NCBI GenBank assembly: GCA_037442105.1
Contig: JBBIQV010000006.1
Location: forward strand, 62,001-105,742
Source of the DNA: Nitrospiraceae bacterium
Lineage (GTDB): Bacteria > Nitrospirota > Nitrospiria > Nitrospirales > Nitrospiraceae
Direction of reading: 5' to 3'
Length of the DNA: 43,742 bases
Position numbers: made by a program. Position 1 is the stretch's first letter. Each line of letters begins with the position of its first letter. This document shows, in pieces, positions 3,001-9,000 of the stretch.

Positions 3001-6000
3001 GGGCTCGATGAACGACGGATGGTTGTGCGACTCCATCTTGAACACGGCGCAGAGGCCGTCGCCGATATCGACTGCGCCGGCGTTTTCCCCTGGCCCCTGC
3101 ACCACGCGAGGTCCCATCGTCGGCAGCTTCTTCAAATGGACACGCGAACTCTTGTATGAGCAATGTTCCGACCACATGACCGAGAACATGCCGAGTTCCG
3201 TCAGATTCGGCTCGCGCCCCAGAATCTCGACGATCTTCTTGAACTCGTCGTCCGTCAGATTGTGCTGCGCGATGAGGTCTTTGGTAATTGAGACACTGTC
3301 TATCGCCATTTCCTCACCATCTTTCGAACCTTTCTCTCAACATCTTTCTGGGACAGCACGCGACCAGCCTTTATGTCTTCCTCAGCATGCTCAATCTTCT
3401 GCCGCACGTAAATGTGATACTGGAGGTCTTCCCAGGTAAGATCATCCGGAAGGGCACTGAGCATTTTGACAAGCTCGGCTTTAACATTGGTTTTGGCCTT
3501 CACATTTCTCGCCATCTACTAGACCTGTCCAAGTAATTCGAAGTATTCGTCCCGCGAGAGGCCCGCCGTGCGCAAATTGTTCTTGATGATGAACACCGGC
3601 ACTTCGTCCCAATCTGGGATCACAACAGGTCTTGCAACACCGGACTTCACATACACAAAGTGATCCCCTTCCGTCCTCACAAGCTTGAACCCGGCCTTCT
3701 CAAACACCCTTCGCAGCTTCGATGCCGGTATCGGAATGATGCGAGGCATTGCTTTAGGCCGACAGCGACATCACTTCCGTCGACACAATACGAGGGGACT
3801 TCCACGCCCCATCGGTGGTGCGTTGGTAGCCCGCCTCTCTTAGAATATCGTCCAGCGTTCCCAACTTCTCCGCCTCTTCGATAAACAGACGGACGGAGGT
3901 CTTCAAGTTACGTCTTGCTTCGTCAACATCCCTTCCACAACTAGAGACATCCAACTCCGGACAGTGAGCCACATAGGCTTTGCCTTCCTGGAAAATAATG
4001 GCATCGAATTCAATGGGCTTCATGAGTCACTCCCTTCAGTAACCGGAGACACCGGCTCCCCTCCGAGAATCTCGACGATCTTCTTGTACTCATCGTCCGT
4101 GAGATTATGCTGCGCGATGAGGTCTTTGGAGATCAGTTGATCGGATGATTTCATTGGCTCCTGTGCACCTTCCAAGGAATGATCTGTCCGCTTTCGAGCA
4201 GGTCAAACAACTTCTCGGAGCGCTGGCGAGTCATAAACTCTTGAAGAGCCTTAAACCAAATCTCGACTCTTCGCTGAATTGTCAGGTTCTGCCGCACACG
4301 TGAAATGATGACCGCGCCTCGCCAGTCGGTGTCCACGTCTCCGAACTCAGTATCCTGCGTGAGAAGAACGACCTCCTCTCTTGCCAGCCGTTTACGGATC
4401 TCTGAATCTTTCACACCGCGCAAACCCAGCGTGATGATATGCTCGGCATCATATCCCGCCGCTCGCAACCGATGGTAGAGCGGCAGCGGAAAATTCTCGT
4501 CCAATAGGAACTTCAAGAGGCCTGCTCAACCGCAGGCGGCACATGTTCGGCAACATGCGCGGCATAGCGAAGCGCGGCAAGAATCTGCTCTCTCGTGATG
4601 GCATAGGCGTCCTGCACCGCCTCGATACTCTCTCCTGCAGCCAGAGCCCCCACCACCGTCGCCACGTCGATACGCGTTCCTGTGAGACAAGGTTTCCCGA
4701 ATCTGATACCGGGGTCCATCGAAATGCCAGGAAAGACTTCCATAGCTCCCCCTTCACATAATCGAGAACATGCCGAGTTCCGTCAGATTCGGCTCGCGCC
4801 CCAGAATCTCGACGATCTTCTTGTACTCGTCGTCCGTCAAATTATGCTGCGCGATGAGGTCTTTGGTGATCATGGCTTGCATCAGCAATTCACTTCACGG
4901 TATGGCTCAAAAGACCAGACATTTCCAAGACCCGCTTCGACCAAACATTCGACCGCTCTGCAAGACGCTGCCGTTGTTCAAGATCAGTCCAGATACGGCT
5001 CCAGTTGTACTGCCACCGTGCAAGCTGTATTTGCAACACAACGAGTTCCTCCGCCGTGTGGCTCTCAGCTTCCGCCGCCGTCCATTCAATAAAGAACTTG
5101 CTCTCATCTATCAGACTTTCGACCGCTTCCCGGCTGGCGTCGTGCGCGGCAAACGACTTGATACGGCCCAAATTAGCCGCCAGCCCGCCCAGGCGGACGG
5201 GCAAATCGTCCCGCATATATCGCTCTCGAATCGCCGTCCAGTCTTTCATGCGCCCCCCAGCAGTTGACGAACAATCCCGGCCACACGCTCGCGAAGAGCT
5301 GGGTCAAGAATCTCCAGCGAAGGATTGTTCTGACGAGGACGGATATTGATCAGCGATTCAAAGGTGACCTGTTGTGCAGCAGGGTTCCAATCCGCTCCCC
5401 ACACGTCTTCCTGGCGACTGCCATCTTCGATCAACACCGCCTCACAATCCGCGTGCAGCGTGCCACCACCAGCGAGAACACCACGTTGAATGTCCACCGC
5501 CAGCTTGATGTATGTAGCGAGCGCCTGGAGCATCTCTTTCATCTGTTGCTTGGTTGCATGAGCACGAACAAGATGAATCACGACCCTGACGACCCGCCAC
5601 GAATCTCTCGCACGACGTCCGCCAGCGGGATTCCCTTTCCCTCATCAAGTTCGGCCAGCCCTGCGAGAAGGTCCGCCTCCTCCTCATGAGTCAGTGGCTC
5701 CAAGCGATCAATCGGCCCCATTGGTTCCATCATGTGTTTCCCCATCAGAAATCTCGACGATCTTCTTGTACTCATCGTCCGTCAGATTATGTTGTGCGAT
5801 GAGGTTTTTGGCAATCATTGGTCAAGGCTACTTTAGCAGGTACTTCGACAGATCTATTTCGCCAAATCCCTTCTTTCTTCTGAGAACCAATTTCTCACCG
5901 TCGTGTCGAATGCTCACATGCCAATAGAACCTATCTTCCAGTTGAGTGGTCCACATTCCTTCAAGCCAGCGAGTGAAGTCTTGAAAGGGAATGAGCAAAA

Positions 6001-9000
6001 CGATGCTCTCTGAGCCGCAACCGTAGGCAACATACCCTTCTCTTGCAGCTTCCAGTCTCTCCTTTTGGTGAGGATGAAACGCGTACCAATACATTTCTCT
6101 TGTGTGAGTTCTCGAAACGGCGCAGACAACCACTAACGCTCCGTCAGGAGAACTAAAAGTTGCGCGCGTTTGCTTAACCAGGGAACGACCGAGAAACTTT
6201 TCAATGCGGTCAATACATGCTCCATGGAAATCAACAGGAACGAATTGGGGTGCTGGTTTGTCTTTTTTCCTCGGTGTGTCCTCTTGAACTTCAGCCTCTG
6301 CAACGTCTTGTTGAATTTCCTCCGCCGCAGAAAAGACCAAATCGATGATCCCGTCAACTTTGGTGAATTCTTGCGGCACCAAAATCCCGACTATCTTTTT
6401 CAATATTTGCGGATCCTCAACCGTTTCCTTGAGGAACATCAACCGAACCAACGCATCAACGCTGATTAAACGAATATCCCATGCGTGCCTCGATCCGCGA
6501 ATTTGTGCTTCGAGATCACCTGTATCTTGCCTGCCAACAACAACCAAGATAGAAGACTTCGCTTCGCTTGCCTTACCTTCCTGGATAAGCCTTTTTCTAT
6601 ACTCAGCAATGGCATCGAGGCCTACGCGGTAGGCATCGGTTGTCTTGACCTCAACAATAATCTCACTCCCAAGTGATGATCTCCATAGGCCATCGTGTCC
6701 ACTTTGGCCTGAACTGCCGCGATATCTGCCATCTTCCACTTGAAATCCGAGCCGGCGCCCAATTTGATTCACAACATCTTGAAGGGCATACCCACTGCCA
6801 TCAAATTTTTCAGTGAGACATTCCTCACCATAACGAGCAAGAAGAGCCGAGGGAATGTGCGAGAGAAAATCACGAAATTCTCTAGAGGCATCGCCCCCAT
6901 CAAGGAGCTTTCCAGAGCCAGCAATAGCTATAATTTGTTGAACTTGCTTGCCTTCAAGTTGTGCTCTTGATTTGCCCCACAGATCAAAAAGAGGCATGAA
7001 TGTGTCCCCTACGTTCTAGTGAGCCACGGCAGGTTTCGGTTGCAGCATCGCCCTTTTCGCCCCCTCCAACATCGAGAGGAAGATCAGCCGCCCGTCCTCG
7101 TTCCCCAGCGCCTCCTCCGCGCACCGTTCCGGATGCGGCATCATGCCGAGCACGTTGCCGGCTGCGTTGCGAATGCCGGCGATGTTGTCGAGCGAGCCGT
7201 TCGGGTTCGCTTCCGGCGTCACCTTGCCCTCCGGCGTGCAGTAGCGGAAGACGACCTGCGCGTTGGCTTGCAATCCTGCCAGCGTCACCGGGTCGGTGTA
7301 GTAGTTGCCGTCCGCATGGGCGATCGGAATTTTCAGCACTTGGCCAGATTCGTACTGACCCGTGAACGGCGTGGCCGCGTTCTCGACCTTCACACAGACG
7401 TCTTTGCAGATAAAGTGCAGCGAACGGTTGCGCAGCATCGCTCCCGGCAGGAGCCCTGCTTCCAGCAGAATTTGAAACCCGTTGCAGATGCCGAGCACGA
7501 GGCCGCCATCGTCGGCAAATTTCTTCACCGCCCCCATGACCGGCGAGAACCGCGCGATGGCCCCCGTCCGTAGATAGTCCCCGTAGGAAAACCCGCCCGG
7601 CAAGATCACGCCATCGAGGCCGGTCAGGGAGGTCTCCTTGTGCCATACCATCGTCACGTCTTGCCCGAGCACGTTCTTAAACACATGCTCGCAATCGTGA
7701 TCGCAGTTAGAACCGGGAAACACCACCACGCCGATGTTCATCTCTTCCTCTCCCAGCTACCACGATCAGGCAGGCCAGTAATGGGGCAACAGGGCTTGAC
7801 TCTACTGCGCGCATCGAACGAGCACTCCAACCTTTTTGATGAACCTTGAGATGGATTGAGTGCGCGTTCTGCGAGCACGGAGGCAAGCCCTGTCGCCCCG
7901 TATCCTTACCATCACTGCAACTCGTACCTATACTCTTCAATGATCGTATTCGCCAACAGCTTCTCGCACATCTGCTTCACCTCAGCCTCCGCCCTGGCCT
8001 TATCCTGCTCGTTCACATCCAATTCCATGTACTTCCCGACCCGCACGTTTCCCGCATTCTTGAACCCCAGCGAATCGAGCGCATGCTCGATCGCCTTTCC
8101 CTGCGGATCGAGAATGCCTTGTTTGAGCGTGACATGGATTTTCGCTTTCACGAGTGATGCTCCTATTGCGGTGACTTATTCAGCCTATCGATGTATTTTC
8201 TGATCTTGAGAATGCCTCCCACGGTGGCAATGCCTCCTGCCGCTAACGCAAGGAACGCCCAGCGCCAGGGTGAATCGTCCAAGCGATAGGCCATCATGCC
8301 GACGACCGCAGCCCACACCAGCACCGCCGCTACCAATCCGTAATTCAGAAAGAGCTGAAGAAACCTCTTCACTCTTTTCCTCCCTCACCCCCTCTAAGAA
8401 TTTGGGATGCGTTCTGTTGTCGAGAGGTTGGGGTTGGTCTCCCCTGCGCGCGTCCAACGAGCACCCGTCTGCGGGTGCGGGTTGCGCGAGCACAGAGACC
8501 AATCCCAGCCTCTTGGCATCTTCCTACCCGCACACCCTCTTCAGCACCTCCTGATACGCCTCCTCAATCCTCCCCAAATCCTTCCTGAACCTATCTTTGT
8601 CCATCGACTCGCCCGTCCCCATGTCCCAGAACCGGCAGGTGTCCGGCGAAATTTCATCCGCCACGATCGTCTTATTGTGGTACACCCCAAACTCCAGCTT
8701 GAAGTCTACGAGTTGCATCTGCCGCTCCTTGAAAAACGGCGCGAGAATCGCGTTGACCTTGAGGGCGAGCTCTTTCAACTCTCTCGTCACTCCCGGCGTG
8801 GCCACCTTCAACAGTCGCGCGTGGTCGTCGTTGATCAGCGGATCGCCCAGGGCGTCGTTCTTGTAATAGAACTCGACGATGGCCGGCTCGATCGCATCGC
8901 CTTCTTTCAGCCCCAGCCGTTTCGCAAGGCTCCCGGCCACGATATTTCGGACCACCACCTCGACGGGCACAATGGCGACCTTTTTCGTGAGCATCTCCCG

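Follow-up and report, generated by a model that had tools for sequence, protein, structure and literature searches.

Displaced copies of the purL start among toxin–antitoxin genes of a Nitrospiraceae genome: possible gene-end displacement by homologous recombination

The window analysed here, a stretch of 43,742 nucleotides from a Nitrospiraceae bacterium (assembly GCA_037442105.1, contig JBBIQV010000006.1, positions 62,001–105,742), carries purQ and purL on the minus strand, separated by a gap of 3.7 kb that is filled by toxin–antitoxin and nuclease genes (Table 1). Three displaced copies of the purL start lie in this gap and form, together with the live segment, a single repeat family of four members (E-values of 1e-21 to 1e-49 for the matches among them in a within-locus search). 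As a preliminary description of the locus had reported, the copies split the gap, and the GC content is low there (0.47–0.56 in the units versus 0.60–0.62 in purL and purQ in the present analysis). The copies are 66–116 nt long and 89–95% identical to purL (89.6% over 77 nt, 94.8% over 116 nt and 89.4% over 66 nt against the live segment). The extent given there for the copies, codons ~8–45, holds for the middle copy only, the others stopping at codons ~34 and 29. The 12 small genes counted between purQ and purL comprise nine cargo genes and three ORFs created by the copies. Nor is every unit closed by a copy, as had been stated, none being present between purQ and the 389-residue gene. A 44-residue ORF made by a purL copy matches the FGAR-AT linker in Pfam; the ORF of copy 2 (4020–4154) has a stop that overlaps the start of the putative hicB.

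Table 1. Features of the purL array and of the glnE locus in the window (positions counted from the first nucleotide of the window)
Feature	Position	Strand	Remarks
purL	1054..3309	-	751 aa, intact
Live purL segment, codons 8-46	3173..3288	-	Anchor that gets copied
71-aa gene	3300..3515	-	No Pfam or NCBIfam match
HicA toxin	3519..3749	-	PF07927, E 3e-10
89-aa HicB-like antitoxin (putative)	3754..4023	-	No Pfam match; named from position before hicA
Displaced purL start, copy 2, codons 8-34	4053..4133	-	Own start at 4154
DUF5615/PIN-like gene	4151..4516	-	Pfam
DUF433 gene	4513..4743	-	Pfam
Displaced purL start, copy 3, codons 8-46	4755..4870	-	95%
119-aa gene	4890..5249	-	No significant family match
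DUF5674 gene	5246..5581	-	Pfam
~55-aa antitoxin-like gene (putative label)	5578..5745	-	No family match
Displaced purL start, copy 4, codons 8-29	5750..5815	-	Own ATG at 5818
389-aa low-GC protein	5828..6997	-	Large unnamed family
purQ	7016..7741	-	Pfam
purS	7912..8151	-	Pfam
glnE-type adenylyltransferase	21949..24210	+	Target of second, mirror-image event
Fic-domain cargo gene (DUF4172-Fic)	24357..25457	+	
Displaced, decayed glnE 3' end copy	25480..25652	+	76% over 116 nt aligned; one internal stop

Pfam confirmed HicA, DUF5615/PIN, DUF433 and DUF5674 in the array, and the 89-residue gene is taken to be HicB-like from its position before hicA and from features of that family. The 71-residue gene is probably an orphan antitoxin, since related small genes sit before ParE toxins in relatives; its stop overlaps the purL start, and the first seven codons of purL here are of the type found behind a 66–71-residue cargo gene. 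The first codons of copy 3 match the live purL start of one relative (G107), the same 119-residue cargo gene preceding both, and homologs of this gene occur at purL of G029, G082 and G107. Described earlier as an orphan, the 389-residue protein has 2883 homologs among 8000 candidates scored, and close ones bear the source label Nitrospiraceae; PADLOC, NCBIfam and PDB-sequence searches gave it no name. Its predicted fold is nearest to the restriction endonucleases HindIII, BspD6I and FokI, with low TM-scores, and D102, E116 and K118 are invariant; it is probably a PD-(D/E)XK nuclease. Promoter and terminator predictions within 3100–8400 were at shuffle level (5 versus 2.9 and 2 versus 4.4, respectively). 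All three copies carry a Tyr, as do most relatives, where the live purL of the window has Phe, and they are therefore not fresh duplicates of the present allele. The protein sequence of the displaced copies has a pN/pS of 0.44 versus 0.25 in live purL starts, a value compatible with neutral decay of starts that were once functional.

The suggestion that the 5′ end of purL is an insertion hotspot throughout the family is confirmed. A search of 150 genomes of the family with the purL segment matched 128, with at least two matches in 22; 18 of the 21 of these that were fetched have a local upstream copy in the same layout. Distant second copies in G035, G094 and G120 are chance matches on other contigs, inside or between unrelated genes. 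A phylum-wide protein search, which is insensitive to short copies and so is no evidence that they are absent beyond the family, matched 151 of 301 genomes and gave at least two matches only in the present genome (G000), G008, G022, G082 and G281, the last of which has two full-length genes. Among the 29 best-scoring relatives, purQ lies no more than 200 nt from purL in eight, the rest having inserts or no purQ in the DNA examined; gene content between purQ and purL varies among relatives, and no mobility genes are found there. The units are not four fresh, fixed mini-islands: three of them occur in the same order in G029, which belongs to another genus, at 82–85% identity, and other relatives reshuffle the same cargo genes into new orders across unit borders. 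In G002 and G105, hicB stands before DUF433, and in G000, G029 and G053 it stands after it. One and the same hicB flank has different starts upstream of it in G002, G105, G112 and G130, which places the crossovers inside the copy. Cargo has crossed between genera while staying at the locus: between G000 and G029 it is closer than purL at fourfold sites (73/207 versus 83/144, P 5e-5), although in most cargo pairs the divergence equals or exceeds that of purL, and the two transfer tests were chosen after viewing all pairs.

The 28 displaced purL copies vary in length: their ends range over nt 27–133, and at most 24 of them share any one position. Ten end at nt 64–67, and identity falls stepwise between codons 29 and 30; several of the copies ending at nt 64–67 may share descent from one join. 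The first ~7 codons of purL track the upstream cargo and not the host genus. When the 30 nt before codon 8 were scored by alignment, the mean was +3.0 for 43 pairs with the same cargo in different genera, −3.3 for 737 pairs with different cargo and −3.0 for 77 pairs with different cargo in the same genus, +3.0 being reached in none of 5000 label shuffles; the test partly measures the stop region of the cargo itself, it used hand-assigned labels and omitted one row, and kin are not independent. Because start codons follow cargo, the units bring a replacement start, as originally proposed, with the old one pushed upstream. In nine of 21 copies, and in five of the eight independent join types in which the cargo start permits it, the stop codon in the purL frame overlaps with the start of the following cargo gene (P ~0.09 against one frame in three), a hint only that the displaced start may be translationally coupled to the cargo.

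The same scar, a 5′ copy upstream or a 3′ copy downstream across small cargo, is found at 12 unrelated genes of this genome. In a scan of 1945 genes, counting same-strand copies outside other large genes, the 3′ end was copied downstream in ten cases and upstream in none, and the 5′ end upstream in six and downstream in two; in 513 inter-gene intervals, copies of the adjacent end were found on the same strand in eight and on the opposite strand in none, and of the far end in one. The 16 end hits include two pairs of paralogs, an internal repeat and a weak hit at a distance, all of which were dropped. The genome list also excludes an O-antigen ligase tail (no cargo in between), hsdS (a match of 39 nt), an ABC-2 permease (a larger duplication) and L053, L057, L061, L069 and L070 (non-coding repeats). 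No weight is given to an enrichment of toxin–antitoxin genes (2/6 versus 6/507), for which the small library used labels most cargo wrongly. The mirror-image scar at glnE (Table 1) recurs in relatives, with tails after cargo in seven of the eight fetched, the closed, single-contig G115 among them. Tails of uvrA occur in G064 and, twice, in G105, and stacking of tails is seen in relatives for both genes; no frequency is given for uvrA because its family search is confounded by a paralog. Occurrence of the scar at about a dozen unrelated genes therefore points to ordinary homologous recombination rather than to an insertion enzyme specific for purL.

No integrase was found among 93 proteins from the purQ–purL intervals of relatives, a chosen subset of the called ORFs from genomes that are mostly drafts. 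None of 61 matches to PF00589 in five relatives is near the purL, glnE or uvrA loci, none of the four in this genome is on this contig, and no large serine recombinase was found. The site-specific integration at purL that was initially inferred is not supported by these observations: integrases are absent from every array examined, no stretch of purL is common to all 28 copies, and the 11 other genes with the same architecture share no junction motif discernible by eye. Homologous recombination, named as an alternative in the preliminary description, is judged the better fit. Other vehicles were also considered. An integron cassette array is not indicated, the contig having no PF00589 match and the separators being purL coding sequence. 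Searches with three units (blastn) against 72,556 plasmid and 50,697 phage records matched purL itself only, an exact degenerate pattern gave no match in viral contigs, and 12 viral contigs with a PurL N-terminus contain long purL genes (554–685 aligned residues), not fragments. Retro-insertion was set aside, the one reverse transcriptase of the genome lying elsewhere with no link seen. RecA and DprA are present; ComEC was not found in this genome, which is 87% complete, and was found in four of five relatives. It is also common in control genomes, so its presence does not demonstrate competence.

We propose, with a probability of about 55%, that the array arose by gene-end displacement through host homologous recombination, without a dedicated recombinase. 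A unit would consist of cargo, mostly a toxin–antitoxin pair, that is joined to purL start codons of its own and bounded on the other side by a 30–130 nt piece of purL codons 8–45. The DNA bearing it would come from a related Nitrospira-like cell, perhaps by transformation, either as a small circle looped out from between two copies or as a linear piece in which the copy forms a short left arm and purL a long right arm. A crossover within codons 8–45, presumably RecA-dependent, would install the cargo and a new start and leave the old start upstream, where it could anchor later gains, losses and swaps; purL would survive because its end is replaced. Anchors of 30–120 nt at 80–95% identity are short for RecA. 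Lacking a promoter of its own, the cargo would be carried on the pur operon transcript and may be expressed by read-through, and toxin–antitoxin addiction might slow the loss of units. A mirror process would act at 3′ ends, as at glnE, uvrA and others. The first unit at a locus might enter by an illegitimate join. In most cases no copy precedes the first unit behind purQ, and a deletion or replacement event is needed there.

A less likely alternative is that the units are decayed or trans-mobilized site-specific elements of the kind that accrete as CIMEs. Their att site would lie close to codon 29 of purL, each tandem insertion restoring the gene; integrases and element bodies would have been lost, leaving att-proximal cargo, and the other loci would reflect other integrases. 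Replacement of the gene end within attP is the rule for gene-targeting integrases (PMC10111431), and tandem accretion with decayed members is on record (PMC5704250). The cluster of ten copy ends at nt 64–67 is what a fixed crossover site would give, two uvrA copies from different genomes begin at the same point, and each relative has 8–22 tyrosine-recombinase matches. However, no integrase or remnant was found at the purL, glnE and uvrA arrays scanned, every unit is only about 0.5–1.5 kb, and 12 unrelated targets face four PF00589 matches in the genome. Phage and plasmid records hold no unit, viral purL genes being long, and no core is common to all copies (24 of 28 at most), although later decay could mask one.

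It seems distinctly improbable that the array is an old one, formed inside a single lineage by local duplication, unequal crossing-over and gene conversion, with little transfer between genera; deletions between copies would have shortened it, and conversion would have kept the copies alike. Such a history would account for the shared order of three units in G000 and G029 at about the overall identity of purL and for the deletions between short repeats visible in G029, G053 and G036, and pop-out between copy and purL would likewise make starts follow cargo. Deletion alone cannot, however, yield the differing order of hicB and DUF433, and other observations speak against such an origin: the cargo is low in GC, its fourfold divergence in some pairs from different genera is much smaller than that of purL, and the copies have a Tyr that the purL of this genome lacks. 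Mis-assembly of a repeat-bearing contig, a concern expressed at the outset, is scarcely credible. The genome is a 62-contig assembly, and no single contig among those listed from a second sample spans the whole array. Nevertheless, contigs of that sample (run X2) cover 3259–4097, 4125–4792, 4768–5779 and 5750–7202 with 0, 0, 2 and 15 differing letters, so each cargo–copy join is present there and the second sample carries the same units (run X3 looks like the same data as X2; run X1, possibly the source sample, was set aside). Moreover, the copies differ among themselves, and the layout recurs at purL in 18 relatives and at glnE in a one-contig genome. No excision, copy-to-copy joint or unit circle is among the 15 joints, out of 34, that were listed from contigs, which drop rare forms.

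A literature search that covered mainly papers outside subscription, largely without supplements, found this arrangement described neither at purL nor in Nitrospira. Homology-facilitated illegitimate recombination, or insertion-duplication, in natural transformation usually deletes recipient DNA. Like the displacement proposed here, it imports foreign DNA through one homologous anchor and a short or illegitimate join, and it could make the first unit; we know of no case in which it is tied to stacked gene-end copies, and the search returned no paper on it in such a role. Integrase islands that restore a protein gene include e14 at icd and SXT at the 5′ end of prfC. Integrase islands and CIMEs (PMC10111431, PMC5704250) share with the present array a replacement gene end, a far-side fragment and tandem arrangement, but their att core is fixed and at least one member encodes an integrase; neither feature was found here. 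The minimal mobile elements of Neisseria (PMC3787668) and hotspots free of mobile elements (PMC5635113), where exchange is ascribed to homologous recombination at flanking genes, similarly lack mobility genes and vary in the cargo that lies between a conserved pair of genes; both are double-crossover replacements, and the descriptions consulted mention neither displaced gene-end copies nor additive stacking. Similar in working is the displacement of rhs C-termini, for which a hypothetical model of homologous recombination with circular intermediates has been proposed (Jackson et al., 2009; PMC2935791). There, gene fragments of variable length are likewise strung beside an intact gene whose incumbent end is displaced without a recombinase, and the circular intermediates also carry intervening genes. 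In rhs, however, a multi-copy toxin family, the exchanged tip is itself the functional payload, whereas the anchors here are housekeeping genes (purL, glnE, uvrA and others) whose end is merely replaced, the cargo consists of unrelated toxin–antitoxin genes, and 5′ as well as 3′ ends are involved. The purL array resembles rhs-type displacement in its presumed working but is not a member of it.

Many gene-content hotspots have no recognizable elements (PMC5635113), and chromosomal toxin–antitoxin and small defence genes, although patchily distributed and clearly mobile, often have no mobility gene next to them. With 12 genes in a single genome and three loci across the family, the scar can be counted, which makes the question testable, since anchor length, crossover position and RecA dependence are all measurable. 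Displaced copies are mis-called as tiny genes, island finders anchored on integrases would miss such inserts, and the N- or C-termini of conserved enzymes would be swapped as a by-product. We suggest, tentatively and with some doubt, that gene ends throughout the genome may act as recombinase-free landing pads, toxin–antitoxin cassettes without a mobility gene spreading between genera by means of short copies of housekeeping-gene ends and the displaced start being kept as a short leader ORF that hands ribosomes to promoterless cargo. If so, chromosomal toxin–antitoxin and defence genes would have a general means of moving without a transposase or integrase.

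A repeat search revealed a single strong repeat family, consisting of the live purL segment and three copies of it in the 3.7 kb gap between purQ and purL. The copies start at about codon 8, where conservation of purL sets in, stop at codons 34, 46 and 29 (copies 2, 3 and 4, respectively) and each have their own first codons. The order along the transcript is purQ, a gene for a 389-residue protein, copy 4, genes for ∼55 residues, DUF5674 and 119 residues, copy 3, DUF433 and DUF5615, copy 2, hicB-like, hicA and a 71-residue gene, and purL. All cargo genes share one orientation and are closely packed, the last (71 residues) overlapping the purL start. 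Contigs of a second sample bridge every cargo–copy join with a few strain differences, and no contig crosses the entire array. The purL-start copies reported in the preliminary description are real, mis-assembly being highly improbable, and are reinterpreted here. A 20 nt inverted repeat (90%) lies between purS and purQ, with similar non-coding repeats elsewhere in the genome.

Features of the window, with percentage identity to the live purL segment, and loci with displaced gene ends in the source genome (G000)
Feature	Position	Strand	Remark
purL	1054–3309	minus	intact
Live purL segment	3173–3288		
Copy 2	4053–4133		89.6%, 77 nt
Copy 3	4755–4870		94.8%, 116 nt
Copy 4	5750–5815		89.4%, 66 nt
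purQ	7016–7741	minus	intact
Inverted repeat	7783–7899		
purS		minus	intact
glnE	21949–24210		followed by Fic gene
glnE tail copy	25480–25652		
glnE to MazE-type antitoxin	21949–26020		
Defence-like island	30905–43208		
5′-end loci, G000			purL, metallo-β-lactamase-fold hydrolase, response regulator, hsdM (three copies), radical-SAM gene
3′-end loci, G000			glnE, uvrA, M20 peptidase, M28 peptidase, class-V aminotransferase, another hsdM, metallophosphoesterase

The 389-residue protein is a member of a large, unnamed family; its model (pLDDT 82) has restriction endonucleases as nearest folds, at low TM-score, and contains invariant Asp, Glu and Lys in a PD-(D/E)XK-like arrangement. We take DUF433/DUF5615, DUF4258, DUF2283, DUF6883/DUF4926 and nucleotidyltransferase–HEPN to be toxin–antitoxin-like pairs. 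In relatives, the purL-array cargo comprises HicA, DUF433, DUF5615, DUF5674, ParE, Phd, nucleotidyltransferase–HEPN and DUF4258/DUF2283, and Mrr, GIY-YIG, Abi, GmrSD or restriction-modification genes are mostly found beside purQ. The slot after purQ (loci L031–L050) mostly holds a defence nuclease or restriction gene with no preceding purL copy, and a conserved non-coding repeat that recurs between genomes often precedes this gene. The window also contains a defence-like island that putatively encodes a cytosine methyltransferase fused to an HhH-GPD-like glycosylase, an 1836-residue DEAD/DEAH helicase, DISARM/Druantia-like by eye, and a 567-residue DUF4062-like protein.

The purL segment was matched in 128 of 150 family genomes, 22 of them with at least two matches. 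Among the 21 fetched (all but the unpublished G075), second matches in three arose by chance and 18 carry one to four purL copies upstream; a short upstream copy also occurs in G053. An empty state, with purQ within 200 nt of purL, is seen in eight of the 29 best-scoring relatives. In G066 (locus L025, 1658–2266), a purQ 3′-end copy (99 nt, 94%) follows an antitoxin-like/ParE pair, showing entry into this junction from the purQ side too. The purL alignments break early in G082 (L043, after residue 202), G105 (L045, at 114) and G126 (L049, after 312), which may reflect frameshift, insertion or assembly error; the open frame in G082 is 1228 residues long and may contain an intein.

Displaced purL starts form short ORFs, the stop of which overlaps the next cargo start in nine of 21 copies; the overlap is seen both in G036 and in G057, where the leaders differ by 48 nt. 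Counted by independent join types, overlap occurs in five of the eight where it is possible, two misplaced cargo starts lying outside this count. This hints at a possible reason for the persistence of displaced starts; no sign of selection on leader residues was seen in the displaced copies. Some starts are in frame with cargo, forming chimeric ORFs with an antitoxin-like gene (L043, 8278–8454) and with DUF433 (L035 of G029, 8813–9181).

The claim that units carry a replacement purL start holds, as the first codons go with the cargo across genera. Those of copy 3 match the live purL start of G107, the same 119-residue gene preceding both, and the live start in the window matches that of G112, likewise behind a shared gene of 66–71 residues. 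One start behind ParE is common to G002, G082, G105 and G024, which represent three genera. Start similarity was +3.0 for same-cargo pairs from different genera versus −3.3 for different-cargo pairs, with none of 5000 shuffles as high. The score is in part a measure of where the cargo itself stops, one uncertain row was omitted, and kin are not independent of one another. All three window copies have Tyr, the family majority, where the window purL has Phe. In G002, G105, G112 and G130, one decayed flank before hicB adjoins a different start each time, indicating that exchange occurred within the copied segment.

Integration specific to purL, as proposed earlier, is not supported, since the same scar occurs at 11 other, unrelated genes of G000. 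Our scan of 1945 genes with a minimum length of 450 nt (our own gene calls; same-strand copies outside other large genes) gave ten 3′-end copies downstream and none upstream, and six 5′-end copies upstream and two downstream; this polarity falls as replacement predicts. Removal of two paralog pairs, an internal repeat, a weak match and a cargo-less tail, and addition of the metallophosphoesterase (copied part classed as middle), left 12 loci, with intervening cargo of toxin–antitoxin type in nine, restriction type or DUF in two and an unnamed 72-residue gene in one. An interval test (n = 513) gave eight same-strand matches to the adjacent end, none on the opposite strand and one to the far end. 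No junction motif common to the 12 loci was apparent by eye. At one hsdM locus (L067 on C53, 1442–3714), a short motif, GC-rich and in part palindromic, recurs after each of three displaced starts, which suggests that a dispersed repeat supplied these joins. A reverse transcriptase (C14, 1586–1858) adjoins a type I restriction-modification cluster in which a displaced hsdM tail is also found, and at L058 (C17, 1591–5651) an ABC-2 permease tail and its downstream cargo genes are together duplicated in tandem, as a larger unit.

The glnE event in the window, in which a MazE-type antitoxin gene follows the displaced tail, mirrors that at purL. Tail matches were found in 97 of 150 relatives and were double in ten, eight of them locally; seven of these eight, including the single-contig genome G115, show the order gene–cargo–tail, making this a hotspot in at least seven relatives. 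The cargo is Fic or DUF2442 in six and unnamed in one, and G106 carries two tails in tandem. Copies of the uvrA tail occur once in G064 and twice in G105, with Phd, VapB and PIN as cargo.

We consider it somewhat better than an even chance (about 0.55) that the array was built by homologous recombination inside the copied purL segment. A unit might pop out as a circle and then recombine within that segment, or the donor might be linear DNA, short on one arm and long on the other; the initial unit of each locus would have required an illegitimate join. RecA and DprA are present in G000; ComEC was not found there (87% complete), but was found in four of five relatives. In run X1, one unit also occurs in a version that is 88% identical and stems from another organism. 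No excision joint was seen among the contig joints listed.

Site-specific integration, the earlier reading, by integrase islands that have decayed or act in trans seems unlikely, although ten of 28 copies end at nt 64–67, identity falls abruptly from codon 29 to codon 30 and two uvrA copies share a start point. Such clustering could reflect shared ancestry of joins. Copy ends spread over nt 27–133, with any one position common to at most 24 of the 28, and the arrays scanned contain no integrase: none of four PF00589 matches in G000 lies on the contig of the window, none of 61 in five relatives lies near an array, and no large serine recombinase was found in G000. None of the phage and plasmid records searched contains such a unit. 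The sole mobility gene among 93 proteins scanned from the purQ–purL intervals of relatives is a DDE transposase in G001, a single-copy genome. Local duplication and conversion is less probable still. Gene order varies among genomes, which speaks against simple vertical decay of one old array, and fourfold sites differ less in cargo than in purL between G000 and G029 (73 of 207 against 83 of 144; P = 5 × 10−5) and in hicB of G112 and G146 (7 of 35 against 69 of 140), both pairs having been chosen after the fact and most others lacking such an excess.

The closest model is provided by rhs genes, for which PMC2935791 describes C-terminal displacement with gene fragments of variable length and proposes a circular intermediate; the purL locus works alike without being a member. 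It has the layout by which minimal mobile elements (PMC3787668) and MGE-free hotspots (PMC5635113) are defined, to which the displaced ends are an addition. Integrase elements commonly supply replacement ends and accrete in tandem (PMC10111431 and PMC5704250); neither the integrase nor the core that define them was found at the arrays examined. The arrangement is undescribed in the literature searched, in which subscription journals were poorly covered. Its value lies in a genome-wide pattern with two polarities that extends beyond purL, can be counted across genomes and could be rebuilt in a laboratory strain.
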